This document shows, in pieces, positions 5,984-49,492 of a DNA stretch of 64,000 bases; position 1 is the stretch's first letter, and each line of letters begins with the position of its first letter. This DNA comes from Pseudomonadota bacterium (GTDB taxonomy: Bacteria > Pseudomonadota > Gammaproteobacteria > Steroidobacterales > Rariloculaceae). Location of the stretch: NCBI GenBank assembly GCA_036337035.1, contig JAYZFC010000008.1:3213-67212 (forward strand), in the 5' to 3' direction. Position numbers and translations under genes: made by a program. The notes under the pieces were generated by a model. The model made no database searches. It was not told the DNA's origin and saw only the letters and a list, made by a program, of their open reading frames with translations.

Positions 5984-7042
5984 ATGAAGTTTACTAACTT
6001 ATTAGTGCCGTTTCTAATTGTATTTCTACCTTTTTCATCATTTTCTCAAGATATAGCTATAGATCATGCTCCTATCAGCATAATGGGCGACCATATGCAC
6101 AAAGCTGGCGAATATATGATTTCTTTAAGAACTATGAAGATGAAAATGTCAGGTAACATAAATAAATCAGGAAGTTTATCAGATTCTCAGATTATCAACC
6201 TCCCTAACCCATATCAGATGGGCTCGATGCCAGCAAAGCTAAGTGTTGTTCCACAAAACATGGATATGAATATGACTATGTTAGGTTTCATGTATGCGCC
6301 TTCTGACAAGTTTACATTAATGGCAATGGCAATGTTTAATGGTAAAGAAATGACACTCAACACGTACAAAGGAATGATGGATAGGGCATATATTGGGTCT
6401 TTTGAAACGTTATCTTCAAATAAATTATCATCATTTTCCTTATCAACACTAATCAGGCTAACTAATGAAGAAAATCATAATGCTCACATAGAAATTGGTT
6501 TATCAGAATATTCAGGATCAAATAATCTTAAAGGTATAGTTCTTACCCCAATGAACATGAAAAAAAATATGGTACTTCCATATGCAATGCAGCAATCAGA
6601 TAAATCAAAGAAATTAATATTTGCGTATACTAGAAATAATAAGATTAATGAAAATTATCATTCAGGATTTCAAATAAGAAGTATTTCTACTATAGAAAAG
6701 GATAAATGGAGCTATGGAGATAGGTTGATTTTTTCTGGTTGGCTACAAAAACAGTTTGATATCAATACATCTGGATCATTGGCAGTCTATTTTAAAAATG
6801 AAGGAAAGATAAATGGTAGAGATTCTTCTATAATGGCTCCTGTACAAACTGCTAATCCAGAGAACTATGGCGGCAATACTGTAGAGATAGGATTTGGGAT
6901 AAACAAATTATTGACAATATTCCCAGGTCTTCATAAAGATAGGATAGCTATTGAGGCATTAATTCCAATTAATCAGCAACCAAATGGAACTCAAATGAAA
7001 AGAACATGGTCATTAACTTTTGGATACCAAAAAACATTCTAA
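5984..7042 (+). CDS. Met/His-rich predicted beta-barrel outer-membrane protein, function unknown
   Basis: 352 aa. Sec signal peptide MKFTNLLVPFLIVFLPFSSFSQD. C-terminal ...LTFGYQKTF ends in Phe, as outer-membrane barrel proteins typically do. Met clusters MKMKM, MDMNMTM and LMAMAM, plus DHAPISIMGDHMH near the mature N-terminus. I cannot name a characterised family with confidence. Confidence 0.65.
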   Translation: MKFTNLLVPFLIVFLPFSSFSQDIAIDHAPISIMGDHMHKAGEYMISLRTMKMKMSGNINKSGSLSDSQIINLPNPYQMGSMPAKLSVVPQNMDMNMTMLGFMYAPSDKFTLMAMAMFNGKEMTLNTYKGMMDRAYIGSFETLSSNKLSSFSLSTLIRLTNEENHNAHIEIGLSEYSGSNNLKGIVLTPMNMKKNMVLPYAMQQSDKSKKLIFAYTRNNKINENYHSGFQIRSISTIEKDKWSYGDRLIFSGWLQKQFDINTSGSLAVYFKNEGKINGRDSSIMAPVQTANPENYGGNTVEIGFGINKLLTIFPGLHKDRIAIEALIPINQQPNGTQMKRTWSLTFGYQKTF

Positions 7043-10500: not shown

Positions 10501-11238
10501 ATGGATTTTACTATCTTGATGAAAAATATAATATATTTTACTGTCTTAGTTTTTATATCTCAACAGATATACAGTCAAGATGAAAATATAGATGAATCAA
10601 TAAAAAAACAATACAAAATTGAAGTTATATTTTTTACTTATAATGAATTTGATCCCAATGAAGAAAGTTTTGATAACCCAGATCCTCATACTCTTTTGGA
10701 TTTAATAAACAAAGATATATTCACTAATCAATCAATAAGATCGCAATATACTATCGATAGAATAATATCTAACTTAAATACAGTTGCTTTTGCAGATAAT
10801 TATGAACCTAAATCACCCATAGATAACCTTAATACTAATAATATCTACTGGTTTAAACTATTAGATAGTCAAAATTATAGCCTTAATGGAATTGCTGATA
10901 GGCTAAATACTTTGGATGTATACACACTAGTTTCCCATGGAGCCTGGATCCAAGAATCTTACTCAGAAAATGAACCTTATCAATTCAAATTACATCATCT
11001 AGGTTCTATGAATCCGCTTGGTACGATTCATTTTTATGAAAGTAGATTTTTACATGTAAGAATAGATGCTCAATACTCTTCTAAATATTTAGACATCTCC
11101 TATAGTGATGTAATCAATAAAATAAAAATGCCTTATAAATATAATATAGATAAAGAGAGAATAATTAGAGTTGGAGAAATAAATTACTTTGATCATCCAG
11201 CATTTGGAATGATTATTTTAGTTGAAGATTATCCCTAA
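10501..11238 (+). CDS. CsiV-like (DUF2803-type) periplasmic protein
   Basis: 245 aa, starting 1 nt after the mfd stop. Has an N-terminal signal/TM segment (IIYFTVLVFISQQIYSQ). Blocks YKIEVIFFTY, VSHGAWIQ, FLHVRIDAQY and INYFDHPAFGMIILV resemble my memory of the CsiV/DUF2803 family. That family lies beside mfd in Vibrio (recalled, not checked). Confidence 0.55.
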   Translation: MDFTILMKNIIYFTVLVFISQQIYSQDENIDESIKKQYKIEVIFFTYNEFDPNEESFDNPDPHTLLDLINKDIFTNQSIRSQYTIDRIISNLNTVAFADNYEPKSPIDNLNTNNIYWFKLLDSQNYSLNGIADRLNTLDVYTLVSHGAWIQESYSENEPYQFKLHHLGSMNPLGTIHFYESRFLHVRIDAQYSSKYLDISYSDVINKIKMPYKYNIDKERIIRVGEINYFDHPAFGMIILVEDYP

Positions 11239-15537: not shown

Positions 15538-16225
15538 TATTGATCTTCATAATCATCTCATAGGCTGCTTTTTGTTCAGCAATTCTCCTACTGCTTCCTT
15601 TTCCTTCAGTAGCTAAGCAACCATTATCTATTTGGCATGAAACATAAAAATGTTTATCATGCTCAGCTCCAACAATTTTTGTTATTTTATAAATCGGCAA
15701 ATCTCTATCTAGTTTCTGCAAAATTTCCTGCAATTTAGTTTTCGAATCTTTAAGAGCGCTTGGATGGGGTAATTGATTTAATCGATAATCAAAAAGTACC
15801 CCTATACTTTTATCAGCTAAGTCATAACCGCCATCAATATATATAGCACCGACGATAGCTTCTATTGCACACGCTAAAATAGAGTCGCTATTTCCTCCAC
15901 CTGATGATGAAGCTCCAGGACCTAAAATCAAATACTTTGAGAGATTAATTTCTTTTGCTATATTTGCTAAGGTAATTCCCTTAACTAGCTCTGATCTAAA
16001 TCGACTTAAGTCACCTTCATTAGTCTGATGTTTTATTTTATATAGCCTACTAGATATACTAAAACTTAATAAGGAATCTCCTAAGAACTCTAACCTTTCA
16101 TTATTAACCTTAGAGAAACTTTTATGTGTCAAAGCTTGATCAAGAAGTGACAAGTCATTAAACCTATACTTAAAATGCTTCTCAACCCAATTAAATCTTA
16201 TTTTTTGTGTCAAACTATCATCCAA
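15527..16225 (-). CDS. rnc: ribonuclease III
   Basis: 232 aa. RNase III signature ERLEFLGDS and a C-terminal dsRBD. Overlaps era by 11 nt. Confidence 0.93.
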   Translation of the reverse strand: MDDSLTQKIRFNWVEKHFKYRFNDLSLLDQALTHKSFSKVNNERLEFLGDSLLSFSISSRLYKIKHQTNEGDLSRFRSELVKGITLANIAKEINLSKYLILGPGASSSGGGNSDSILACAIEAIVGAIYIDGGYDLADKSIGVLFDYRLNQLPHPSALKDSKTKLQEILQKLDRDLPIYKITKIVGAEHDKHFYVSCQIDNGCLATEGKGSSRRIAEQKAAYEMIMKINNEK

Positions 16226-16234
16226 GTAAAAAAT

Positions 16235-16993
16235 TTACTCAATATTAGTACCAATTCTTGACCAGTATGGACCTCCTTCGCTAGGCCATCTCCAGTTCAT
16301 CCAAATAAGTACAGCTTTCCCTACAAGGTTTTCTTCAGGAATAAAATCTACTCCATCAAAACGACTATCCCTACTATTATCCCTGTTATCACCCATCATA
16401 AAGTAATGATTATCAGGAACTATGTATACTCCACCAGGGCTTATTCTATCTTTCATAAGCAACAGCTTATGTAGCTTATCACCTAAAACTTCCTCACCAA
16501 GCTCAAGATTTGTATCAAAATCATAAAATCCTATTAATTTAATAGAAATAACCTCTCCATTTATGGTTAAACTCTTAGAGTATTGATCATAAAAAATTTC
16601 ATCCCCTGGTAAGCCTATTAATCTTTTAACATAATTTATTTTAGGGTCCGAGGGAAGCCTAAATACAACAACATCACCTCTTTTTGGTAATCCAATATCT
16701 AAAACTTTTGTGTTTATAACAGGAAGTCTTAATCCATATGCAAACTTACTTACAAAAATAAAGTCACCTCGTATCAATGTCGGCATCATTGAGCCAGAAG
16801 GTATCCTGAATGGCTCAAATATAAAAGATCTTAAGACCAAGACTAGTAGTAAAACTGGAAAAAAAGATTTTGAATATTCAAATAAAAGAGGTTCTTTCTT
16901 GTTAGATTTTTTATAATTAAAAAATATTATATCAACCAAATAAACAACACCTGTAAAGAATGTTAATAATACCAATATTAATGCAAAATCCAT
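16235..16993 (-). CDS. lepB: signal peptidase I
   Basis: 252 aa with an N-terminal TM segment. Catalytic boxes SGSMMPTL, VKRLIGLPGD and GDNRDNSRDSR. Confidence 0.93.
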   Translation of the reverse strand: MDFALILVLLTFFTGVVYLVDIIFFNYKKSNKKEPLLFEYSKSFFPVLLLVLVLRSFIFEPFRIPSGSMMPTLIRGDFIFVSKFAYGLRLPVINTKVLDIGLPKRGDVVVFRLPSDPKINYVKRLIGLPGDEIFYDQYSKSLTINGEVISIKLIGFYDFDTNLELGEEVLGDKLHKLLLMKDRISPGGVYIVPDNHYFMMGDNRDNSRDSRFDGVDFIPEENLVGKAVLIWMNWRWPSEGGPYWSRIGTNIE

Positions 16994-17017
16994 TGTATAT
17001 TACCTCGATAAAATTAA

Positions 17018-18829
17018 TTATTTGTTTCCCTTAAGTATAGCTAAAAACGCCTCTTGAGGAACCTCAACTGTTCCTACTTGCTTCATTCTTTTCTTACCTG
17101 ACTTTTGTTTTTCTAATAGCTTCATCTTCCTCGTCACATCTCCACCATATAGCTTAGCAGTAACATCTTTCCTAAGTGCTTTAACTGTACTCCTTGCCAA
17201 TACTTGGCTTCCTATAGCTGCCTGAATAGCTACATCGAATAGCTGTCTAGGTATGACATTTTTTAATGTATCAACAATCTGTCTACCTCTTCTATCAGCA
17301 AAATCACGAAATACAATCGTAGACATAGCATCAACCTTTTCTTTATTAATCAGAATATCTAATTTAACTAAATCAGACTTCTGAAATCTAACAAAATGAT
17401 AATCAAAGGAAGCATACCCACGACTCACTGATTTAAGCCTATCAAAAAAATCTAGAACAACTTCAGACAGTGGTAGCTCATAATCTAAAGAAACCTGATT
17501 ACCTAAATATTGTAATTTTTTTTGAACGCCTCTTTTTTCTATACAAAGCTTAATAACAGGACCTACATAGTCCTGAGGAAGTAAAATATTTGCTAATATA
17601 ATTGGTTCTTTTATGTGTTTAATTTGATTTAAATCAGGCAGTAAAGCTGGACTTTCTATACTTATGCTTTTTCCACTCAAAAGATCAACTTGATAAACTA
17701 CCGTTGGAGCTGTAGATATAAGATTTAAACTATACTCTCTCTCTAGCCTTTCTTGAACTATCTCTAGGTGTAGCATTCCTAAAAAACCACATCTAAAACC
17801 AAAGCCTAATGCTGCACTTCCTTCTGGTTCAAAATGAAAAGCAGCATCATTAAGGCGTAATTTTTCAAGGGCATCTCTAAAAGATTCGTAGTCATCTGAA
17901 TTAATTGGGAATAGACCAGCAAAGACTCTTGGCTTGATCTTTTTAAATCCTGGTAACGCAAGAGTTTTTTCATCACCTGGCTTTCTTATTGTGTCTCCAA
18001 CAGGAGCACCATTTATATCTTTTATTGCAGCAATAATAAACCCAACCTCTCCTGCATTAAGGCTATCTTTATCTATCATCTTTGGAGTAAATATTCCTAA
18101 CCTATCAGCAGAATAGGACCTTCCAGAAGACATAACTTGAATCTTATCTCCTTTTTTTAAGCTTCCATCTACTATTCGAACTAATGATACTACTCCACAG
18201 TATGGATCAAACCACGAATCAATAATTAAGGCTTGAAGATATGAATTATTATTAGCTACAGGAGCAGGTATCGTTTTAATAATTCTTTCAATTAAGTCAG
18301 GTACTCCTAAACCAGTCTTAGCACTTACTTTATGGATATCGCTAGTATCTAAACCAATTAACTCTTCTATCTCTCTAGACACTTTATCTGGATCAGATGC
18401 TGGCAAATCTATTTTATTTAGCACTGGTAAAACCTCTAGATTTTGCTCAATTGCAGAATAGCAATTTGCTATACTTTGAGCCTCTACGCCCTGAGCTGAA
18501 TCAACAACTAAAATAGCTCCCTCGCAAGCCGATAAAGATCTAGAAACCTCATAGGAAAAATCAACATGGCCTGGTGTATCAATAAAATTCAGCTGGTAAC
18601 GGTCCCCATCCTCGGAGTTATAATTTAATGAGACGCTTTGTGCCTTAATTGTGATTCCTCTCTCTCTTTCTAAATCCATAGAATCAAGAACCTGATCATT
18701 CATCTCTCTATCAGAAAGCCCACCGCATAATTGAATAATTCTGTCAGCCAATGTTGATTTACCATGATCAATATGGGCTATTATTGAAAAATTTCTTATT
18801 TTTTTTATTGAGTATTTATTATCAACCAC
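17018..18829 (-). CDS. lepA: translation elongation factor 4 (LepA)
   Basis: 603 aa. [28 protein letters not shown] and NKID motifs, with the characteristic LepA C-terminal domain. Confidence 0.95.
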
Positions 18830-18855
18830 TTCAGACCTAAATATAACTTAGACTA

Positions 18856-19089
18856 TTATCTACTAAGATAATCTAATACGGCATCAGAATCTAGTGGATA
18901 TCCAGAAAGCTCTCCATGATCTCCCAAAATGACAGGAACTCTTAGGCCATAAGATTTTATTAACTCATAATCACCATCAATATTAATTATTATTAAATTA
19001 GCTTTATCACTAATTAATGACTCTAATTTATCTTTAACAACATCACATAAATGACAGTCATTTCTTGTATAAATATAAATATTTTTCAA
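18856..19089 (-). CDS. glutaredoxin-like small protein (thioredoxin fold, DUF836-like)
   Basis: 77 aa. N-terminal CxxC (YTRNDCHLCD) followed by a short Trx-fold-length body with VPVI. The TTG start overlaps the sdhE stop by 4 nt. Confidence 0.6.
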   Translation of the reverse strand: MKNIYIYTRNDCHLCDVVKDKLESLISDKANLIIINIDGDYELIKSYGLRVPVILGDHGELSGYPLDSDAVLDYLSR

Positions 19090-19340
19090 TTGATGCTTTT
19101 TATACTTGATCTAATTAATTTTAACAAATTCACTAATACTTCATTATCTGATAATTTATTTCCTAGAATAAAAGAATGTAGGTCTGGATCAGGTAACTCT
19201 AAAAGCGAGGCAAACATTTCTTTTTCTTCTTGATTTAGATCTACAAAGAAGTTATCAAGAAAATTAATCAGTACTGAATCTAATTCTCGCATTCCTCTTC
19301 TGCAACGCCAACGAAGTTTTGAAATATTATCGACTAACAA
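19086..19340 (-). CDS. sdhE: FAD assembly factor SdhE (SDHAF2/YgfY family)
   Basis: 84 aa. RWRCRRGMRELD and LELPDPDL align by eye to E. coli SdhE (HWACRRGMRELD ... LECDDPDL). TTG start 8 nt after the sdhB stop. Confidence 0.88.
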   Translation of the reverse strand: MLVDNISKLRWRCRRGMRELDSVLINFLDNFFVDLNQEEKEMFASLLELPDPDLHSFILGNKLSDNEVLVNLLKLIRSSIKSIN

Positions 19341-19348
19341 GATTTATC

Positions 19349-20131
19349 CTAAGAGCTTTCTTCAGCTATCAATTGTTTAATTTTAGATATTTTTTCGCCT
19401 GGGTTGAGGTCTTTAGGACATGATTTGGTACAATTTAATATAGTGTGACAACGATATAACTTAAACGAATCATTCAGATCTTTTAGTCGCTCTTTCTTCT
19501 TGTCATCCCTAGTATCTACAATCCATCGATATGCTTGTAATAGCGCTGCGGGACCAAGATACTTATCTGAATTCCACCAATAACTTGGACATGAAGTTGA
19601 GCAACATGCGCATAAAATACATGCAGATGGCTCATCAATCTTTTCTTGGTCTTCTTTACTTTGTATTCTTTCTTGATCATCAGGTAAATGATCCTCAGAC
19701 TGGAGCCAAGGCTTTACTGAAGCGTATTGCTTATAAAATTCAGTTAAATCAGTAACAAGATCTTTTACAACAGGCATATGAGGAAGAGGATAAATATTAA
19801 TAGCACCTGAAACATCTTCTACCGACTTTAGACATGCTAAGGTATTTGTTCCATCAATATTCATCGAACATGATCCACATATACCTTCTCTACAAGATCT
19901 TCTGAATGTAAGTGTAGGATCTATTTCATTTTTTATCTTAATAAGGGCATCTAACACCATTGGTCCACAAGAATCCATATCAACTTCATAGCTATCCATA
20001 TGCGGATTATTTTTCTCGGTAGGGTCATATCTATATATTTTAAACTCTTTTTTATTTATAGATTTTCCCTTAAAAGGAAAATTAGCCCCTTTCTTTATTT
20101 TAGAATTTTTTGGTAATGTAAATTTTGCCAT
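19349..20131 (-). CDS. sdhB: succinate dehydrogenase iron-sulfur subunit
   Basis: 260 aa. Cys clusters [27 protein letters not shown] and [12 protein letters not shown]. Confidence 0.95.
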
Positions 20132-20150
20132 TCCTAATCCTTAATAAACA

Positions 20151-21938
20151 CTAATAAGTTCTTGCCTTGGGAGGGATTGCTTCAACTTCATCAGTCATTG
20201 TGTCTAGTTTCACATTTCTATAAGAAAAGCTAACATCTCCCTTTTCACTAACCCAACACAATGTATGCTTCATCCAGTTATCATCATCTCGATTAGGGTA
20301 GTCTTCCCTAGCCTGAGCGCCTCGACTTTCAGTCCTATTAATGGCAGATTTGATAGTACCCATAGACTGAAGTAAAAGGTTTTCGAGCTCCATTGTTTCA
20401 ATTAAATCTGTATTCCAAACTAAAGATCTATCTTTTGTTTCTACATCCTGAAAAGATGCAAAAATCGGCTCTAGCTTATCAATACCTTCCTGCAATGACT
20501 CTCCAGTTCTAAACACAGCAGCATATGTCTGCATTACTTTCTGCATTTCTAACCTAATTGAAGATGTTGATCTTTTACCTTTTGAATATCGCAATTTATC
20601 GAGCCTATCAATTGAATCTTGGCCGGCATCTTTAGAAAACGAGTCATTATTATTATCTCTTTTTAATATATCGGCACATCTATTTGCTGCGGCCCGACCA
20701 AAAACAACTAAATCTATAAGTGAATTAGAACCAAGCCTATTAGCACCATGTACAGAGACACACCCAGCCTCCCCAACAGCCATTAAGCCTGGAAAAACAG
20801 ATTCTTTGCCCTTCGAATCCATAGTGACAACTTCGCCATGATAGTTTGTAGGTATCCCCCCCATATTATAATGAACAGTAGGTAATACTGGAATAGGGTC
20901 CTTGGTTACATCAATACCAGCAAAAATCTTAGCCGTCTCAGCAATGCCAGGTAAACGCTCTTCTATAACATCGCTCCCCAAATGTTCAAGATGCAAAAAA
21001 ATATGATCTTTTTCTAGGCCAACTCCTCTTCCTTCTCTAATCTCAATAGCCATAGAACGGCTTACCACATCCCTAGAGGCAAGATCTTTAGCGTTTGGTG
21101 CGTATCTCTCCATAAACCTCTCACCTTCAGAATTAGTCAAATAACCACCTTCACCTCTAGATCCTTCCGTAATAAGACAACCAGGACCATAAATACCTGT
21201 TGGATGAAATTGAACAAATTCTAGGTCTTGTAGAGGTAATCCGGCCCTTAAGACCATTGCATTACCATCTCCGGTACAAATATGTGCTGAAGTGCAAGAA
21301 AAGTATGATCTTCCGTAACCACCAGTTGCAAGAATTACCATCTGACTTCTAAATCGATGTATCTTGCCTGTAGAAAGCTCAATAGCAACAATACCTTTGC
21401 ATTTAGAATTCTCTATAATCAAGTCAATAGCAAAAAATTCTATAAAAAACTCTGCTTTGTGCTTTAGCGATTGTTGATACAAAGTATGGAGCATCGCATG
21501 ACCAGTTCTATCTGCTGCCGCACAAGTTCGTTGGGCAATACCTTCACCAAAATGTGTTGTCATCCCACCAAATGGTCTTTGGTAGATCTTCCCCTCTTCT
21601 GTTCTAGAAAAAGGGACGCCGTAGTGCTCTAGCTCTATAACAGAAGCTGGAGCTTGCTTGCACATATACTCTATAGCATCTTGGTCGCCTAACCAATCAG
21701 ATCCCTTAACAGTGTCATACATATGCCATCTCCAATCATCAGGGCCCATATTGCCTAAAGCGGCACTTATGCCACCTTGTGCCGCAACAGTATGGCTTCT
21801 AGTAGGGAAGACTTTAGTAATGCATGCAGTTTTTAAACCAAGTTCGGCTAAACCAAATGTTGCTCTTAAGCCTGAACCACCAGCACCTACGACAACAACA
21901 TCATAATCATGATCTATAAATTCGTAATCTTTATTCAT
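20151..21938 (-). CDS. sdhA: succinate dehydrogenase flavoprotein subunit
   Basis: 595 aa. FAD-binding [13 protein letters not shown], the flavinylation-site context [10 protein letters not shown], and HGANRLG. Confidence 0.96.
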
Positions 21939-22312
21939 TAATTAGGTCCAAAAAAAATAAAGCATAAAGAAAAAAAACCAACAATAACAGCTGAACAATG
22001 AACTAATAATGATAGTCGTAGCATAAGGGGCTGAATAACTTCATTGCTAATATAATCTTCAATAATTATCTCAATACCTAGCTTTGAGTGAAAGCAAGCA
22101 AGAGCTACAAAAAAAATAAAATATAGAAATATTATTGGTCTTTTAAGTAGGCTCTCAACTAACTCATAAGAGAAGTCACCTAAATTTACAATGATAATTA
22201 TAGAAAAAGGAAATACAAGAAAAAATAAAAAGATTGCTGATAATCTCTGCAGCTTCCAATGTCTTAATGCATTATCATTAAGTGAAATTTTAAATAAAGA
22301 TAACAGGTTCAA
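21938..22312 (-). CDS. sdhD: succinate dehydrogenase membrane anchor subunit
   Basis: 124 aa with three predicted TM helices. [11 protein letters not shown] motif. Shares 1 nt with the sdhA start. Confidence 0.8.
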
Positions 22313-22328
22313 AATTAATCCCTAAATC

Positions 22329-22706
22329 CTATAAAAACAAAAAAATAAGTGAAGAGGTGCTAATAATTGATAAAAGCATTACAACTATTCCAGAATAAAA
22401 AATCTCTTTATGACTAAAACCAATGCCTATATCCCAAAAAATATGTCTAATTCCATTAAATAAATGATAAGAAAAACAAAAAAACCAAAAACCATATAGT
22501 AGCTTAGCAATCGTGGACTTAAGTATGGATAAAGAGAAATTATAAAAAACCTCACCAAGAGATACTGAAGCAATCCAATAAATAATAATAAAGAGACCAA
22601 ACGATAGATATATACCAGTTAGCCGGTGTAGTATAGATAAACCACTTGTTATCTGTGGTTTATATATCTGCAAATGAGGTGATAAGGGTCTATCTGAGCT
22701 CTTCAT
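22329..22706 (-). CDS. sdhC: succinate dehydrogenase cytochrome b556 subunit
   Basis: The ORF track extends to 22781. The conserved N-terminus RPLSPHLQIYKPQITSGLSILHRLTG begins just after Met26, so I call the start at the ATG at 22706. That is 4 nt after the stop of the upstream DUF1674-like ORF. Confidence 0.85.
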   Translation of the reverse strand: MKSSDRPLSPHLQIYKPQITSGLSILHRLTGIYLSFGLFIIIYWIASVSLGEVFYNFSLSILKSTIAKLLYGFWFFCFSYHLFNGIRHIFWDIGIGFSHKEIFYSGIVVMLLSIISTSSLIFLFL

Positions 22707-22710
22707 GATC

Positions 22711-22905
22711 CTAAAAATCAATACATCGTCCAGCTCTTTCCCAATCTCCATATCTAGTAGGTTCTGGCCCCTTAGGGCCACCTCTTTCTTTAGAGCGAGA
22801 AATAACTTGGTCTAAACTAATATTATCTGAAGAACTATGATTCATATCAGATTTTTTTTTAGATTCTAATTTAGCTTTAGATTTATTTTTCCCTAGATTT
22901 GACAT
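22711..22905 (-). CDS. DUF1674 / SDHAF4-like small protein
   Basis: 64 aa. The N-terminal half is Lys/Ser-rich and low-complexity. The C-terminus GPEPTRYGDWERAGRCIDF matches the DUF1674 (SDHAF4 family) signature as I recall it. First gene of the sdh transcription unit. Confidence 0.7.
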   Translation of the reverse strand: MSNLGKNKSKAKLESKKKSDMNHSSSDNISLDQVISRSKERGGPKGPEPTRYGDWERAGRCIDF

Positions 22906-22933
22906 ATATTGATACCTGTAATTTGTTATATAT

Positions 22934-22974
22934 TATACATTTTAATTGATCTATAAGCATATTTAAAATGTATA
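22934..22974. promoter_or_regulatory. perfect 12-bp inverted repeat (TATACATTTTAA-N17-TTAAAATGTATA) in the divergent sdh/ygfZ intergenic region
   Basis: Read directly: the left arm is 22934..22945 and the right arm 22963..22974, with a 17-nt spacer. The left arm overlaps a minus-strand TATAAT hexamer (22932..22937) about 27 nt upstream of the DUF1674 ATG. The function, operator or RNA hairpin, is inferred only. Confidence 0.3.
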
Positions 22975-22999
22975 TATTGAATAAAATATGAGTTATTAA

Positions 23000-23923
23000 A
23001 TGGTTCATAAAATGTGTAAAACTCCTCATAGAACAAACATTGAAGAAAGATTTGTTTTTATTGAAGTTTCCGGTAGGGATGCAAAAGATTTCCTTAATAA
23101 CCTACTAAGTACTTCGGTAGATAATCTAGACGAAAAGCATTTTTATCTATCTGCATGGCATAATAGACTAGGAAAGGTAAAGTCCATATTCAATATAATA
23201 TATGAAAATGGTTTATTTCTCCTGATGTTTGATAAAAGTGTTGAAAATTTAATTATTAATGAAATTCAGAAATTCACTATAAACCTAGAAGTAAAAGTTT
23301 CAGTTAAAAAAAATTATGTAGCAATATCAGCTTTTAACTATATCAATCTTATTAAAGAAATAAATCAAGATTTTATTAGCAATAATAAAAAAATAATAGA
23401 AATAAACAAATGTAAGTTATTGATAATTGACGGTGATTTTTCCTATATTATAGGAGATATTAATGATGTAAAAGGTCTGATAAAAAGTGACATGAAATCA
23501 TTTAAAGTTTCTAATTATAATGAATCAATTAAAAAAGAAATGAGTCTCGGAATTTTATATATTTGTAATGAGATATTTGAGAAATTTACGCCTCATATGC
23601 TAAACCTAGATAAACTTGGAATAATAAATAACAAGCAAGGTTGCTATCATGGACAAGAAATAATAACAAGAATAAATAGATTAGGTAATACTAAGAGAAA
23701 GTTAAAATATTATTCTGGAGAATATCAATCTAAAATAGCATCAATGTCAAATATAGTAAATAGAGATAATAAAAAAGTTGGCAGTGTTGTTAGAGCTACA
23801 AGGATTGATAATATCTCATATATTCTTGGCATAATTGACATTAATACAGAAAATAAAATAATACATATTAGCAATTCTAATTCTTTACCGTTAAAAGAAA
23901 ACATAATTAAGAGATTCGCATAA
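23000..23923 (+). CDS. ygfZ: folate-binding Fe-S cluster maintenance protein YgfZ
   Basis: 307 aa. The C-terminal motif KQGCYHGQEIITRINRLG matches the YgfZ signature K-G-C-Y-x-G-Q-E. Has a GcvT-like fold length. Divergent from the sdh/sdhE unit; in E. coli ygfZ is divergent from sdhE. Confidence 0.8.
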   Translation: MVHKMCKTPHRTNIEERFVFIEVSGRDAKDFLNNLLSTSVDNLDEKHFYLSAWHNRLGKVKSIFNIIYENGLFLLMFDKSVENLIINEIQKFTINLEVKVSVKKNYVAISAFNYINLIKEINQDFISNNKKIIEINKCKLLIIDGDFSYIIGDINDVKGLIKSDMKSFKVSNYNESIKKEMSLGILYICNEIFEKFTPHMLNLDKLGIINNKQGCYHGQEIITRINRLGNTKRKLKYYSGEYQSKIASMSNIVNRDNKKVGSVVRATRIDNISYILGIIDINTENKIIHISNSNSLPLKENIIKRFA

Positions 23924-23924
23924 A

Positions 23925-25421
23925 TTATTTTTTTCTCTTTATATGTGGAAAAAGTATTACATCTCTTATTGATGGTGAATCTGTAATTAGCATAACTAGC
24001 CTATCTATACCAACTCCAAGACCTGCTGCTGGTGGCATTCCATATTCTAACGCTTTGATATAATCATCATCATAGAACATCGCTTCCTCATCTCCTGCTG
24101 ACTTAGATTCTAACTGTTTCTTAAATCGCTCTGCTTGGTCTTCAGGGTCATTTAGCTCAGAAAATCCGTTAGCTATTTCCTTACCATCAATAAATAGCTC
24201 AAACCGATCAGTTATAAATGGATCATCATTGTTCATCCTAGCTAAAGGAGAGACTTCTTTTGGATAACTTGTTATAAAAATAGGTCCAGTAAGATTTTTT
24301 TCCACTGTTTTCTCAAATAGCTCTACTTGTATTTTACCAGCACCACAATTGGGAGCAATATCAATCTTATTTTTTCTACATACTTTAGATAAAGTATCAA
24401 TATCTCTAATACAGCTAACATCTATATCCTGATTATATTTTAGGATAGCAGACTCTAATGTCATCACCTCAAAATCTTCACCAAAATTAATAACATTACC
24501 TTGGTAGTCAATTTTTTCTTTCCCTAATATAGTTTTGATAGACTGCTTTATAATATCCTGAGTCAACACTATCAAATCCTTATAATCGGAATATGATTGA
24601 TATAGTTCAAGCATAGTAAATTCAGGATTATGCTGTGTTGAAATACCTTCATTTCTAAAACTTCTATTAATTTCAAATACTTTCTCCATACCACCTACTA
24701 ACAATCTTTTTAAATATAATTCAGGTGCTATCCGAAGATATAAATCCATATCTAAAGCATTATGATGAGTGATAAAAGGTTTTGCTAAAGCACCTCCTGG
24801 CACAGGATGCATCATAGGTGTCTCAACTTCTAGAAAATTTAACGAAGAAAGGTATGATCGTATGAAGGTAATTAGCTCACTTCTTATTTTAAAAATATTT
24901 CTAGTCTTCTTGCTAACAATCAGGTCTAAGTATCGTTGTCTAACTTTTATTTCCTGATCTGATATACCATGCCATTTTTCAGGAAGAGGTCTAAGTGATT
25001 TAACTAGCAAATAAACTTCCTCAACCTTTAATGAAAGCTCATTTGTATTAGTTTTGAAGATCTTTCCTTTGGCTCCTACAATATCACCTAAATCCCAACT
25101 CCTTAATTGATTATAAGCTTGTTCTGAAATATGGTTTTTCTGTATAAATAGCTGAATTGATCCTGAACTATCTTGTATTTTCAAGAAGCTTGCTTTTCCC
25201 ATAACTCTTTTAGCCATAACCCTACCTGCAATGGAAATATTAGAATCTTCTTTTTCAAGAGACTCCTTACTTTTTTTCCCGTAAGTAAGATGTAATTGTT
25301 CAGCTAATGCAGTACGTCTAAAAGTATTAACATATACCTCTTCTTGACTTCTTAACCTACTAAGTTTCTCTCTTCTCTCAGCAATTAACTTATTTTCCTC
25401 ATTTTTATTTTCTTCATTCAT
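23925..25421 (-). CDS. lysS: lysine--tRNA ligase (class II)
   Basis: 498 aa with an OB-fold anticodon-binding N-domain. Class II motifs FLEVETPMM, FRNEG and GLGVGIDRLVM. Directly follows prfB as in E. coli. Confidence 0.95.
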   Translation of the reverse strand: MNEENKNEENKLIAERREKLSRLRSQEEVYVNTFRRTALAEQLHLTYGKKSKESLEKEDSNISIAGRVMAKRVMGKASFLKIQDSSGSIQLFIQKNHISEQAYNQLRSWDLGDIVGAKGKIFKTNTNELSLKVEEVYLLVKSLRPLPEKWHGISDQEIKVRQRYLDLIVSKKTRNIFKIRSELITFIRSYLSSLNFLEVETPMMHPVPGGALAKPFITHHNALDMDLYLRIAPELYLKRLLVGGMEKVFEINRSFRNEGISTQHNPEFTMLELYQSYSDYKDLIVLTQDIIKQSIKTILGKEKIDYQGNVINFGEDFEVMTLESAILKYNQDIDVSCIRDIDTLSKVCRKNKIDIAPNCGAGKIQVELFEKTVEKNLTGPIFITSYPKEVSPLARMNNDDPFITDRFELFIDGKEIANGFSELNDPEDQAERFKKQLESKSAGDEEAMFYDDDYIKALEYGMPPAAGLGVGIDRLVMLITDSPSIRDVILFPHIKRKK

Positions 25422-26520
25422 TTAGGATATTCCCTTTTTAAGACTATACTCTAAAAAAGATTCTATATTACCATCTAAAATAGATTCTGGATTAGAGCTC
25501 TCTAAGCCTGTTCTTAAATCTTTAACTCTCGACTGGTCCAGAACATAAGATCTAATTTGGTTTCCCCAGCCTATATCAGATTTATTTTCTTCAAGAAAAT
25601 CTTTTTCAGCATCTCGCTTGCTCTTTTCTAGCTCATATAGCTTTGCCTTGAGCTGATTCATTGCTGTTGCCTTATTTTTGTGTTGTGACCTTCCATTCTG
25701 ACACTGAACAACAATATTAGATGGCAAATGAGTAATCCTAACTGCAGATTCAGTTTTATTAACATGTTGTCCTCCTGCTCCGCTAGCTCTATAAACATCA
25801 ATTCTAATATCTGAGGGATTGATAATTATATCTAGATTATCATCAACTTCAGGAGAAACAAAAACAGCGGCAAATGATGTATGTCGCCTATTACTCGAAT
25901 CAAAAGGTGATTTTCTCACTAATCTATGAACACCAGTTTCCGTTTTGATCCATCCATAGGCATAACTCCCAGAAATTAAGATCGTTGCGCTTTTTATACC
26001 TGCAACTTCTCCTGGTGATTTCTCTAGTATCTCAGATTTGAAATTATTAGATTCAGCCCATCTTAAATACATTCTAAGTAACATCTCAGCCCAATCTTGC
26101 GCTTCAGTACCGCCTGAGCCTGCTTGAATATCTAAATAGGCATTAAAGCTATCCATTTCACCAGAAAACATTCTTTGAAACTCTAATTTCTCTAAAAGGT
26201 GTCTTATATTCTCCAGGTCTAAAAAAATATCTCCAAGAGTTTCGCTATCTCTTTCATCCTTAGCTATCATGAATAGCTCCTTATTATCATCAATGGCCAA
26301 GGAGGCAGTTTCTATATCATGAACAATAGATTCTAATGAAGATTTTTCTTTACTCAGAAGGCCAATTTTTTTTTGATCTTTCCAGATTTCAGGATTCTCT
26401 AATTCACTTTTAAGAACTTGGAGTCTATCCTTCTTTTTATCATAGTCAAAGATACCCCCTCAAAGAACCACATCGCTCTACCAAATCAGATATTAAAACA
26501 CCAACAGAAGTGAAATCCAT
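25422..26520 (-). CDS. prfB: peptide chain release factor 2, requiring a programmed +1 ribosomal frameshift
   Basis: The ORF track shows only 25422..26300. Frame 0 from the ATG at 26520 encodes [24 protein letters not shown] and then TGA. The +1 frame continues [29 protein letters not shown]... into the tracked ORF, which carries the SPF and GGQ motifs ([16 protein letters not shown]). The recoding site is identical to the E. coli one. Confidence 0.93.
26445..26460 (-). promoter_or_regulatory. prfB +1 frameshift (recoding) site: AGGGGG TAT CTT TGA C
   Basis: The minus-strand sequence reads AGG GGG TAT CTT TGA C. It has an internal Shine-Dalgarno-like AGGGGG, a slippery CUU at 26451..26449, an in-frame UGA at 26448..26446, and a following C as weak-stop context. 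Confidence 0.9.
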
Positions 26521-26581
26521 AAATACTAGCCTTGTTAACTTAAAAAAATAAATATGCCATACAATATTTAATTGTTCCAGC

Positions 26582-45728: not shown

Positions 45729-48122
45729 TTAAAACGCATTACCTACGGTAAATTGAAATTCTTCTGTCTCATCTCCATAAAAACGCTCAGTGGTAACCTT
45801 ATTATTTAAAGGTTGACCATAACTAAACCTCAATAAACCAAGAGGAGCTAACCATTCTACGCCAATTCCAAATGAACGTTTAAGATTATTTGGGTTATAT
45901 TTATATTCATCAGTAATATCTCCTAATCTATCACGAAAAGTTACGCCTCCAGTAGAAAATACATTACCAATATCATAAAACAAGGACAATCTTGCTGATG
46001 TCTCAAATTGCTCAGGCATTGGTACTATTAACTCTAATTGTGATATGGCTTTAACATTGCCCCCATAAGGATTTCCCCAGGAATCCTTTGGGCCTAAACG
46101 GCTCTCTCTATAGCCTCTAACCGATCCAGGACCACCAGCAAAAAAGTTTCTATATGGTGGTATTGCGGTTGTTTTATTTCCATATGGATTACCATAAGCT
46201 AAATCAGAGTTAAATCTAAGAATCCATCTTCCAGTAATTGGAAAATATTGTGTATAACGAATATTAGCAACATAATATTCTACATCACTTCCTGGTATTG
46301 AAGCATTAACACTAAATCCAAGTCTTGTGCCATCAGTAGGAAAAATAAATCTATTTCTAGAATCATAAATCCAGCCAGTTGTAAGCTCTATAGTTTCAGC
46401 CTTAGTACCAAAAAATTCCCCATCTCCTGAAACGCTAAAAACTTTCCCGTTCGATTTAACCCACTCATTAGACTGCTCAGAGCTATAAAAACTAGTTGCC
46501 ATCTCAGTATCTGAATAGGCAAAACCAAATTGAAGATACTGATATTCAGTTATTGGGTAAGACCAATCAGCACCTAAGGAATAAGTTTCTGTAGAAAAAG
46601 CTGAACTGGCAGAAGTAAACTGAGTAATATCCCTAAAAGAAAAAGATAAGGTCTGAGATAGTCCATCCATAGTTTTATATGGGTCTGTATAATTCAAAGT
46701 ATAGAATGAAGAATACTTGCCTCCACTCATATTCAATGCCACCCTATCTCCCGAGCCCATAAAATTTGAATGAATAAAATTAGCATTAAGCTGGCCTCCC
46801 CAAGTTTCGGAATAACCTATTCCTCCACCAAATTGACCTGGTAAACCTTCTTCTATTTCAAAATCAATATCTACTAAATCTGTCTCTCCTAGTACAGGGT
46901 TTGTTTCGTACTCAACACTTTCAACATAAGGAAGTCTCTGAAGCCTAATCTGCGATCTATCTAATAATGTATTTGATAAATAGCCGCCTTCTAATTGACG
47001 CATTTCTCTTCTAAAGACTTCATCATTAACATTATCTGTATTATTAAAATTTATTCTTCTAACATATACTCTATCTTGAGAATCTAAAAAGAAAGTTATT
47101 TCAGCTTCATTATTTTCTCTATCTAATTCTGGAATTGCAACAATCTCTGCAAATGAATAGCCATCTTGCCCCAAACGAAGACGAATTAGCTCTTCACTAC
47201 TAGTGAGCAATTGTTGTGAAAAAATTTGTCCAGGACTTGCCAATATAAGGTCAGTTATCTCATCTCTAGGTACTACAAGATCACCAGCAATCTTGATATC
47301 TGAAATTTTATAGCTCTCCCCTTCAACGATATTTATCGTTATAAATATGTCTTGCTTATCAGGAGAAATTGCTACCTGTACACTATCCGATCTAAAATCT
47401 GCAAAGCCCCTATCCATATAAAAAGACCTTAAAGTTTCAAGATCTCCTTCTAAGGCTTCTTTAGAATATCTATCATCATTACGAAAAAAAGATAATAAAT
47501 TACCTGTCTTTAGCTCAAACTCATTTAATATTTCATTATCACCAAAACTAGTATTGCCAACTACATTAATCTGTCTAATCTTAGCCCTATCCCCTTCAGC
47601 TATCTCAATTGCTAATCTAACTCTGTTATCTGAAAGCTCTTCTATAGGAGTTCTTACCTGAACAGCATATTTTCCCTGACTATAATATTGCTCGGTTAAT
47701 GCTCTTTTAATTTCGAGCAAAACAGATTGGTCAAATATTTTTCCTACTGTCAACCCAACATCGGTTAATGATTGCTCTAGCTGTTCAGTTTCAATATCTT
47801 TATTACCAGAAATAGTAAAAGCTTCTATAGATGGTCTTTCAAGAACCACAATAATTAAAGCATCTTCATCTCGGCGAAACTCTATATTTTGAAAAAATCC
47901 AGTTGAATATATTGCTTTAATAGCTTCTTGAACTCTCTGATCTGTAATAGTATCTCCTAAATTGATAGGTAAGTAGTTAAAAATAGTTCCTTCAGAAATA
48001 CGTTGAGCTCCTTCAACTCTAAAGTCATTCACTACCCACGGATCAAAAGAAAAGGCACTTTGTGAATTAAAAAGATAAACTAAAATGCACAAAGATAAGT
48101 TATATTTTATTGATATATTCAT
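45729..48122 (-). CDS. bamA: outer-membrane protein assembly factor BamA
   Basis: 797 aa. Signal peptide, five POTRA-length repeats and a C-terminal 16-strand-length barrel ending FQFTVGNAF. Confidence 0.95.
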   Translation of the reverse strand: MNISIKYNLSLCILVYLFNSQSAFSFDPWVVNDFRVEGAQRISEGTIFNYLPINLGDTITDQRVQEAIKAIYSTGFFQNIEFRRDEDALIIVVLERPSIEAFTISGNKDIETEQLEQSLTDVGLTVGKIFDQSVLLEIKRALTEQYYSQGKYAVQVRTPIEELSDNRVRLAIEIAEGDRAKIRQINVVGNTSFGDNEILNEFELKTGNLLSFFRNDDRYSKEALEGDLETLRSFYMDRGFADFRSDSVQVAISPDKQDIFITINIVEGESYKISDIKIAGDLVVPRDEITDLILASPGQIFSQQLLTSSEELIRLRLGQDGYSFAEIVAIPELDRENNEAEITFFLDSQDRVYVRRINFNNTDNVNDEVFRREMRQLEGGYLSNTLLDRSQIRLQRLPYVESVEYETNPVLGETDLVDIDFEIEEGLPGQFGGGIGYSETWGGQLNANFIHSNFMGSGDRVALNMSGGKYSSFYTLNYTDPYKTMDGLSQTLSFSFRDITQFTSASSAFSTETYSLGADWSYPITEYQYLQFGFAYSDTEMATSFYSSEQSNEWVKSNGKVFSVSGDGEFFGTKAETIELTTGWIYDSRNRFIFPTDGTRLGFSVNASIPGSDVEYYVANIRYTQYFPITGRWILRFNSDLAYGNPYGNKTTAIPPYRNFFAGGPGSVRGYRESRLGPKDSWGNPYGGNVKAISQLELIVPMPEQFETSARLSLFYDIGNVFSTGGVTFRDRLGDITDEYKYNPNNLKRSFGIGVEWLAPLGLLRFSYGQPLNNKVTTERFYGDETEEFQFTVGNAF

Positions 48123-49492
48123 GATATAAGTCTAATAAAATCATTATAAAAAGCAAAACTAATAATCATTGCGATCAAAACTAATCCTAAATTCTGAGAT
48201 ACTATTAGTGTTTTATCTGAGATAGGTGAACCTTTAACAAATTCAACTACTTGATAAACAATCTGACCTCCATCTAGTAACGGTATAGGCAATAAATTTA
48301 AAACACCAAGGCTGATACTGATGATTGCTAAAAAATTAATAAAAGACAATAAGCCGCTTTGGGCGCTATCTCCTGCATATACGGCAATATTGATAGGACC
48401 GCTTATATTTTTAGCTGATACATCTCCCATAATCATTTTACTAATCATTTTTAAAGTCATAACGCTCATTTGGAAGGTCTTAATAATTGATCTTTCGATA
48501 GAACCAAAGAAACCATGGCTTTCAATAACTACTGATTGGTTTAAAATTTCAGAAACCACTGCAATATTTTCTTTAACTCCAATTATTCCTATTGGTGCAT
48601 TGTTAATATTAGAATATCCTATTTGTAATGACTTAGTTAAATTTTCACCATTTCTTTGAATAATTACTTCTACGACCTTATTAGGTCTAATTTGGACATT
48701 GGTGACAAGATCTGAGAAATTATTTATTTTTATATTATCTAAATATAGAATTAAATCATTTCTAACTAGCCCTGCATTATCAGCAGGCATATTCTGAGAT
48801 ACATCTCCTAATATAGCCGGTCTTAAAGGCCCTGGCATAAATCCTAAACCTTTATATAGTTCTCCGGGCATGGTTAAATCCTTCTCTAAACCTCTAACAT
48901 CAAGCTCTAAATATCTAAAATTACCTAATTCATTAGAAGTTGTAATTTGAATTATTCCATCAGAAAGAATCTCATCCAAAATTGAGAGTGTTGCGGCCTC
49001 AAGTGTTGGTGTCAGATTATCACCAACTTTTACTATCATCTCGTCTGCAACCATGCCTGATATATCAGCAATTGAGCCTTCATCAATATAACCTATAGAA
49101 GGTTTATAATGAGTAACCCCAAAAGAAAAAATAACAAAATATGCAAAAATGGCAAAAATGAAATTAAATCCAGGACCGGCTAAGAGTACACAAACTCTTT
49201 GATATATTGGTCTTCTATTAAATGCTTTATGAAGCTCGCTTCTATCAACTTCGCCTTCTCTCTCATCAAGAAGTTTTACATAACCACCTAAAGGAATGGG
49301 GCTTAGAATATATTCAGTAGCGTCAGGTTTTTTTCCTACATATTTTAATAAGGGTTTGCCAAATCCTAAAGAAAACCTTAATACTTTAAAGCCTAATTTT
49401 TTAGCTACAATGTAATGCCCATACTCATGAATAGATACTAGTATGGAAAGAGCAATAATAAATGAAATAAGTGAAATAATTATTTGAGTCAT
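48119..49492 (-). CDS. rseP: sigma-E regulated intramembrane zinc metalloprotease RseP
   Basis: 457 aa. HEYGHY (HExxH) lies in the first TM segment, with PDZ-length central region(s) and a C-terminal NLLPIPLLDGG motif. Confidence 0.93.
   Translation of the reverse strand: MTQIIISLISFIIALSILVSIHEYGHYIVAKKLGFKVLRFSLGFGKPLLKYVGKKPDATEYILSPIPLGGYVKLLDEREGEVDRSELHKAFNRRPIYQRVCVLLAGPGFNFIFAIFAYFVIFSFGVTHYKPSIGYIDEGSIADISGMVADEMIVKVGDNLTPTLEAATLSILDEILSDGIIQITTSNELGNFRYLELDVRGLEKDLTMPGELYKGLGFMPGPLRPAILGDVSQNMPADNAGLVRNDLILYLDNIKINNFSDLVTNVQIRPNKVVEVIIQRNGENLTKSLQIGYSNINNAPIGIIGVKENIAVVSEILNQSVVIESHGFFGSIERSIIKTFQMSVMTLKMISKMIMGDVSAKNISGPINIAVYAGDSAQSGLLSFINFLAIISISLGVLNLLPIPLLDGGQIVYQVVEFVKGSPISDKTLIVSQNLGLVLIAMIISFAFYNDFIRLIS

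Follow-up and report, generated by a model that had tools for sequence, protein, structure and literature searches.

In Escherichia coli the succinate dehydrogenase (SDH, complex II) genes and the genes sdhE and ygfZ are found far apart. On the chromosome NC_000913, sdhCDAB is followed by sucABCD at 0.755 Mb, and ygfX-sdhE and the divergent ygfZ are at 3.04 Mb, 2.3 Mb away. It has been reported that YgfZ supports SDH activity and that COG0354/ygfZ genes cluster with the genes of iron-sulfur (Fe-S) enzymes (PMC3245475, PMC3223725). It has also been reported that SDHAF4 releases SDHAF2 from SDHA and that it has homologues in alpha- and gamma-proteobacteria; according to the same 2023 review these bacterial homologues are just a few and are in non-model organisms (PMC10238741), and a structural paper of 2018 had stated that none was identified in bacteria (PMC5773532). 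Neither the clustering of ygfZ with genes of Fe-S enzymes nor the occurrence of SDHAF4 homologues in bacteria is thus new to the literature, and our full-text literature searches on the gene context of sdhE, ygfZ and sdhCDAB and on DUF1674 together with succinate dehydrogenase returned nothing directly relevant. Here we describe an sdhCDAB locus in a stretch of 64,000 nucleotides (nt) of contig JAYZFC010000008.1, from a member of the Rariloculaceae, and this whole stretch is referred to as the window. In the window sdhCDAB is preceded by a DUF1674 (SDHAF4-like) gene and followed by sdhE and by a gene for a small CxxC protein of the DUF836 family, and ygfZ is transcribed divergently from this run. 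The arrangement from ygfZ to sdhE, written below as ygfZ<>DUF1674-sdhCDAB-sdhE, is an old and widespread gammaproteobacterial layout that is not peculiar to this genome, and DUF836 is likely to have come to lie beside sdhE by a deletion and to have been carried along by synteny.

An earlier note, made from the letters of this DNA, had described these eight genes, and all of them are present with the identities that it gave them and score above the curated thresholds of their families (Table 1), including the open reading frames (ORFs) of 64 and 77 amino acids (aa) that it had placed in DUF1674 and DUF836. It had further held that the assembly factors were consolidated with the structural genes specially here, and this did not stand up when relatives were examined. 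One genome per GTDB species was scanned with DUF836 as the anchor, using a 10-sequence DUF836 alignment, a 50-sequence alignment being too diverse, and the 80 loci obtained were annotated by phmmer with the window proteins and with RpoE and RseA/B/C of the cultured Lentisalinibacter sediminis (locus L016) as queries. Genes of sdh were found within 8 kb of DUF836 in 30 of the 80 loci, which belong to Woeseiaceae, to L. sediminis and to many gammaproteobacterial metagenome-assembled genomes (MAGs). In every one of the 30, sdhE comes after sdhB; DUF1674 comes before sdhC in all 25 loci where sdhC is covered; and ygfZ is divergent from the sdh run in 20 of 25. In L009 and L010, which are of another lineage, ygfZ is on the same strand and after sdhE, which shows that the association of ygfZ with sdh outlives rearrangement. 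The order ygfZ<>DUF1674-sdhCDAB-sdhE is kept across genomes that differ widely in size and in G+C content. Thus DUF1674, sdhE and ygfZ are non-randomly co-localised with sdhCDAB, which is consistent with the structural-plus-assembly module that the note had proposed as far as these three genes are concerned. The module is not supported for DUF836, which was found beside sdhE only in the clade of the window and whose adjacency would come from a deletion.

The E. coli arrangement is as the note had described it, and the pieces of the window locus are held there at three separate sites. The order sdhCDAB is the same in both, SdhE and YgfZ belong to the same families with the RGxxE and KGCYxGQE motifs, and sdhE and ygfZ are divergent neighbours near lysS-prfB-recJ in E. 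coli too. The differences are that E. coli has neither DUF1674 nor DUF836 and has ygfX (cptA) after sdhE, whereas in the window there is no cptA and the structural genes stand between ygfZ and sdhE. The third E. coli site reads nadB<>rpoE-rseABC-lepA-lepB-rnc-era-recO-pdxJ-acpS, without DUF836, and the genes downstream of DUF836 in the window are in this same order.

For DUF836 the comparison is with the Woeseiaceae-type locus, as seen in L. sediminis and in the metagenome contig L097. These share with the window recJ-prfB-lysS, ygfZ<>DUF1674-sdhCDAB-sdhE and, further on, DUF836-lepA-lepB; they differ in retaining cptA-(nadB)-rpoE-rseA-rseB-rseC between sdhE and DUF836, which the lineage of the window is without. 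In L097 even the upstream genes are those of the window (a VTT-domain gene, an NlpD-like gene, DUF498, recJ, prfB, lysS and ygfZ) and the presence of cptA-rpoE-rseABC is the sole difference. As surveyed, this sigma-E block is present in L011-L085, L095 and L097. DUF836 is 2.9-6.5 kb from sdhE in all 30 sdh-bearing genome loci with rpoE between them in each case, and the intervening genes are a cptA/ygfX-like gene, sometimes an opposite-strand nadB, and rpoE-rseA-rseB-rseC. DUF836 itself comes directly after rseC and before lepA. In 22 of 23 loci the start of its match falls between -16 and +64 nt relative to the point where the rseC match ends. As called, the genes rseC and DUF836 share 8 nt in L016 and 4 nt in each of L095 and L097 (L016:7538-8282; L095:14580-15226; L097:13666-14159), and the gene order in these three was confirmed with Pfam. 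A search for rpoE and rseABC homologues across the 64-kb window found none. The compact form, in which sdhE and DUF836 adjoin, is common to L001-L007 and L099, and because it reaches L005, at 77% SdhA identity, the loss of the sigma-E block appears to be old within this marine clade.

The simplest account of these comparisons is that the lineage of the window deleted a sigma-E block of about 3 kb and that this left DUF836 abutting sdhE. The ancestral block would have read recJ-prfB-lysS, ygfZ<>DUF1674-sdhCDAB-sdhE-cptA-(nadB)-rpoE-rseABC-DUF836-lepA-lepB-rnc-era, and in the streamlined marine lineage the cptA-rpoE-rseABC segment would have been removed so that a DUF836 gene formerly coupled to rseC came next to sdhE. 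As for the proteins, the characterised families suggest that SdhE would promote the covalent attachment of flavin adenine dinucleotide (FAD) to SdhA, that the DUF1674 protein would attach by its C-terminal tail to flavinylated SdhA and free SdhE, which would let SdhB dock, and that YgfZ would aid the loading or repair of the Fe-S clusters of SdhB. DUF836 would be a thioredoxin-fold CxxC oxidoreductase whose co-expression with SdhE here is a side effect of genome reduction. Its most probable role is that of a general or RseC-related thiol-disulfide oxidoreductase and not of a dedicated SDH factor.

Two observations on neighbouring genes may be added here. In L034 (1914-3485, minus strand) and L052 (2539-4143, minus strand) the interval between sdhE and rpoE holds an opposite-strand SdhA paralogue; it is most likely nadB, which fits the nadB<>rpoE arrangement of E. 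coli. In the window the gene of the site-2 protease RseP is kept (48119-49492, minus strand) in its usual cdsA-rseP-bamA-skp-lpxD context; rpoE-rseA-rseB-rseC, its classical substrate system, is absent from the ancestral site and from the whole window.

The only possible start of DUF836 in the window is a TTG within the last codons of sdhE (ATTGA, an overlap of 4 nt), and the same 4-nt overlap is found in L005. Because the start is embedded in the end of sdhE, the two genes are probably coupled in translation. A sister species, with about 91% DUF836 identity, has a 1-nt insertion together with a change of this TTG to TTA, and these give an in-frame SdhE-DUF836 protein. This fusion is found in three independent assemblies (L001:10566-11051; L002, at the same coordinates; and L099:838-1323) and also in protein cluster P0295. 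When the fusion protein was used as the query, both domains were found in only 1 of the 120 matches listed (166 passed E<=0.001). A different SdhE domain fusion, to PF06155, is found in a metagenomic protein of 117 aa (P0408).

The earlier note had taken the adjacency to sdhE as implicating DUF836 in the maturation of SdhA or SdhB, and a reading of this kind, in which DUF836 serves specifically in the maturation of complex II, for instance as a thiol reductase that keeps the ligand cysteines of SdhB or an SdhA/SdhE intermediate reduced, and was recruited into a complete operon, has to be weighed against the account given above. The overlap in the window and in L005 and the natural fusion would both fit such a factor. 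It would also fit that purifying selection has continued to act on DUF836 since the loss of the sigma-E block, the ratio of nonsynonymous to synonymous substitution rates (dN/dS) being 0.17-0.19. In addition, the yeast member of the family, Ydr286c, is a mitochondrial protein, and yeast without it respires less and expresses COQ and complex II-IV genes at lower levels (PMC13350749). The same yeast data, however, link Ydr286c to the coenzyme Q (CoQ) synthome and not to SDH, overlaps and short gaps are what this genome normally shows, and overlapping genes undergo fusion easily since a 1-nt indel suffices. The rarity of the two-domain protein among the matches listed also speaks against this reading. 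In 30 of 30 larger-genome relatives DUF836 is coupled to rseC/lepA and is separated from sdhE, which makes the adjacency a weak argument. Moreover, no sdh gene was found within 8 kb of DUF836 in the other 50 genome loci, mainly of Chloroflexota, Acidobacteriota, Actinomycetota and Planctomycetota, though one of these (L045) is a gammaproteobacterial fragment of 3.8 kb holding rpoE-rseABC-DUF836-lepA and not long enough to extend to sdh. A scan of metagenomes with the window DUF836 likewise gave 31 distant loci in which neighbouring sdh, rse and lepA genes are all absent, although many of these contigs are short, and it added one close relative, the fusion-bearing L099. We therefore regard a dedicated role in complex II as improbable. 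The broader idea that DUF836/MGP12 proteins act in respiratory-chain biogenesis, at complex II or in quinone-linked steps, with the fusion as a Rosetta-stone signal that DUF836 partners physically with the machinery of SdhA flavinylation, a partnership conserved to the mitochondrial Ydr286c/C5orf63, is speculative and we would give it little chance of being right.

A different possibility is that DUF836 is tied to the sigma-E/RseC module, either as a redox partner of the cysteine-rich RseC or as a member of an extracytoplasmic function (ECF) stress regulon, and is a leftover in this lineage. Its place directly after rseC in the 23 loci where rseC was detected, with overlapping genes in L016, L095 and L097, would agree with this, and so would a divergent ECF sigma gene 23-66 nt from DUF836 in two MAGs of Actinomycetota (L055:7369-8219 and L090:7421-8234). 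Yet these actinobacterial cases are two only, DUF836 persists and is conserved where rpoE-rseABC is gone from the locus, in E. coli lepA comes directly after rseC and DUF836 is missing there, and we know of no experimental link between DUF836 and RseC. We consider this possible, with the odds against it. It could also be argued that the whole co-localisation is chance packing without functional meaning in a genome that is 97% coding, as the gaps of the cluster are no tighter than those elsewhere in the window and the promoter and terminator scans were uninformative. This is contradicted for DUF1674, sdhE and ygfZ by the order kept across genome sizes and G+C contents, by the way in which ygfZ stays with sdh, rearranged, in L009 and L010, and by the survival of the sdhE<>ygfZ pair in E. 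coli without sdhCDAB; it is viable for DUF836 only, and as an explanation of the entire cluster it is very improbable.

The account that we prefer, a conserved complex II locus with its assembly genes in which the deletion of the sigma-E block put DUF836 beside sdhE, has points against it as well. The genomes were picked by a single DUF836 peptide pattern, Y[ST]R[PNR][DGE]CHLC, and the sample is biased and not representative of all Gammaproteobacteria. The direction of the change, deletion and not insertion, is inferred from how widely the block is distributed and from synteny with E. coli, and not from a rooted phylogeny. The continued purifying selection on DUF836 and the in-frame fusion in the sister species would, as already said, fit an SDH-related role too. 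With these points taken into account we still consider the preferred account likely. What was found is thus an ordinary conserved module, and the useful outcomes are the prediction on bacterial DUF1674 given below, the natural SdhE-DUF836 fusion and an example of adjacency that would have come from deletion. In streamlined genomes adjacency, and even fusion, can arise by the deletion of intervening genes, and therefore guilt-by-association has to be checked against relatives with larger genomes.

Table 1. Features of the complex II locus, with coordinates in the window. Bit scores are given against the curated Pfam or NCBIfam cut-off.
Feature	Coordinates	Strand	Score and remarks
DUF1674 / SDHAF4-like, 64 aa	22711-22905	minus	PF07896 55.5 vs 23.5; heads the sdh run
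sdhC, cytochrome b556 subunit, 125 aa	22329-22706	minus	TIGR02970 112.5 vs 52.3
sdhD, membrane anchor subunit	21938-22312	minus	TIGR02968 62.1 vs 41.8
sdhA, flavoprotein subunit	20151-21938	minus	TIGR01816 963 vs 727
sdhB, iron-sulfur subunit	19349-20131	minus	NF004616 362 vs 228
sdhE, SDHAF2 family FAD assembly factor, 84 aa	19086-19340	minus	PF03937 66.4 vs 27; TTG start
DUF836 / MGP12-like thioredoxin-fold CxxC protein, 77 aa	18856-19089	minus	PF05768 54.5 vs 26; TTG start
ygfZ / COG0354-like, 307 aa	23000-23923	plus, divergent	TIGR03317 57.3 vs 49
Divergent intergenic region DUF1674/ygfZ, 94 bp	22906-22999		
lepA	17018-18829	minus	begins 26 nt downstream of DUF836
sdhE/DUF836 junction	19086-19089	minus	site of cptA-(nadB)-rpoE-rseA-rseB-rseC (about 3 kb) in relatives

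SdhCDAB is a type-C succinate:quinone oxidoreductase, as all four subunit models score above their cut-offs and the genes are in the order C-D-A-B. The listed ORF of sdhC begins with a GTG at 22781 and overlaps DUF1674; the conserved start is the ATG at 22706, because the TIGR02970 match opens at residue 30 of the longer ORF and because the relatives are called at 124-125 aa. SdhA has the 10-residue stretch that we take to hold the FAD-linked histidine. All the small genes of the locus are under purifying selection against their relatives, with dN/dS values of 0.11-0.48. The source is a marine MAG with a G+C content of about 32% that occurs in Tara Oceans samples.

Over its full length SdhE of the window shares 35% identity with SdhE of E. 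coli, and the RGxxE motif is conserved in it (RRGMRELD). Against the E. coli-type equivalog PRK10878 it scores 58.5 bits, where the cut-off is 120, and its membership is at the family level only. The YgfZ-like protein shares 19% identity with YgfZ of E. coli (E 8e-17), and its KQGCYHGQE aligns with KKGCYTGQE of E. coli, that is, with the KxGCYxGQE motif that holds the functional cysteine. Its score against the full-length equivalog PRK09559 is 78.4 bits, below the cut-off of 219, and it had no Pfam match, GCV_T included, at E<=0.01. The YgfZ of the window is a divergent member of the family.

The DUF1674 protein deserves attention of its own. Its C-terminal 33 residues are identical at 27 of 33 positions to human SDHAF4 as present in the SDHA-AF2-AF4 structures 8dyd and 8dye (chain 8dyd_C, E 1e-12), the match reaches the final residue of both proteins, and the tail GPEPTRYGDWExxGxxxDF is conserved as in human SDHAF4. 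It had no match among NCBIfam models, its dN/dS is 0.33-0.48 against relatives, and NCBI naming already has "succinate dehydrogenase assembly factor 4" on some of these DUF1674 proteins. When ten DUF1674 proteins of varying similarity were checked in their contigs, the gene was immediately upstream of sdhC for eight; the remaining two adjoin rsmB without sdh nearby, and we suspect that these two are alphaproteobacterial. Compared with eukaryotic SDHAF4 (yeast Sdh8; human, 8DYD and 8DYE), the bacterial protein is of the same Pfam family, has a near-identical tail (GGPxGPEPTRYGDWERxGRCIDF) and is likewise small with a low-complexity N-terminal part, whereas it has no targeting peptide and its gene opens the sdh run. 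Homology together with the position upstream of sdhC suggests that the DUF1674 protein binds flavinylated SdhA and frees SdhE/SDHAF2, and the prediction is that bacterial DUF1674 is a true SDHAF4. As the fixed first gene of sdh operons, including that of the cultured L. sediminis, DUF1674 offers a tractable bacterial system for the release of SdhE from SdhA.

The DUF836 protein has the conserved C-H-L-C and the cis-proline, and C12, L14, C15 and P52 are invariant in alignment A2. The family profile matches PDB entries 2fgx (E 8e-23), 1xpv, 1ttz and 1wjk. NrdH redoxin models gave scores below their cut-offs (TIGR02194, 23.2 against 85.75; PRK10329, 22.5 against 131). With the other members of the MGP12/DUF836 family (yeast Ydr286c, mouse 1WJK, Xanthomonas XCC2852 1XPV and the Deinococcus DR_0057 type) it shares the thioredoxin fold, CxLC and the cis-proline (PMC8945050), and it differs from them in its adjacency or fusion to sdhE, which was observed only in the clade of the window. 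A word-indexed protein search with DUF836 returned one near-identical match only, and an exhaustive representative search was used instead. In six loci of Chloroflexota (L019, L027, L030, L032, L037 and L042) the DUF836 domain forms the N-terminal part of far longer ORFs, some 330 aa in length (compare P0222 and P0240), unlike the stand-alone form.

The gaps of the run were found to be as the earlier note had described them, -4 to 19 nt (in order from DUF1674 to DUF836, +4, +16, -1, +19, +8 and -4 nt), and so was the 94-bp divergent region. We had considered such spacing as evidence for an operon and dropped it after the gap distribution showed that tight packing is the norm: some 97% of the window is coding, same-strand gaps have a median of 6 nt, 82% of the gaps are 26 nt or shorter, and the gaps within the sdh cluster are no tighter than in the rest of the window. 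Since short gaps are the norm across this genome, the tight spacing of sdh is uninformative on the operon. Over the entire 64,000 nt the packing of genes is extreme, with many overlaps of 1-11 nt. The unit that the note had seen as ending at DUF836 has no visible 3' end at 18856, as the minus-strand run goes on through lepA, lepB (a further 24 nt on) and then rnc, era, recO, pdxJ and acpS, and a scan for minus-strand terminators from 16000 to 24200 found none. The 94-bp region has one promoter-like match per strand (plus, 22909-22936, 10/12; minus, 22967-22939, 9/12), and promoter-like sites overall were not enriched, with 30 against 38.9 expected from shuffles. An Rfam scan of the entire window gave no family at threshold. 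Operon boundaries are thus not readable from sequence here.

Elsewhere in the window, two ORFs that flank mfd, at 5984-7042 (plus strand, 352 aa) and 10501-11238 (plus strand, 245 aa), had no NCBIfam match at E<=1e-5 and look like exported or outer-membrane proteins. The prfB ORF at 25422-26581 (minus strand) is 292 aa long from a TTG start and leaves 281 nt before recJ, and the relatives are called at 284-364 aa. The short ORF is probably due to the usual programmed +1 frameshift of release factor 2 (RF2), with a short first ORF upstream.

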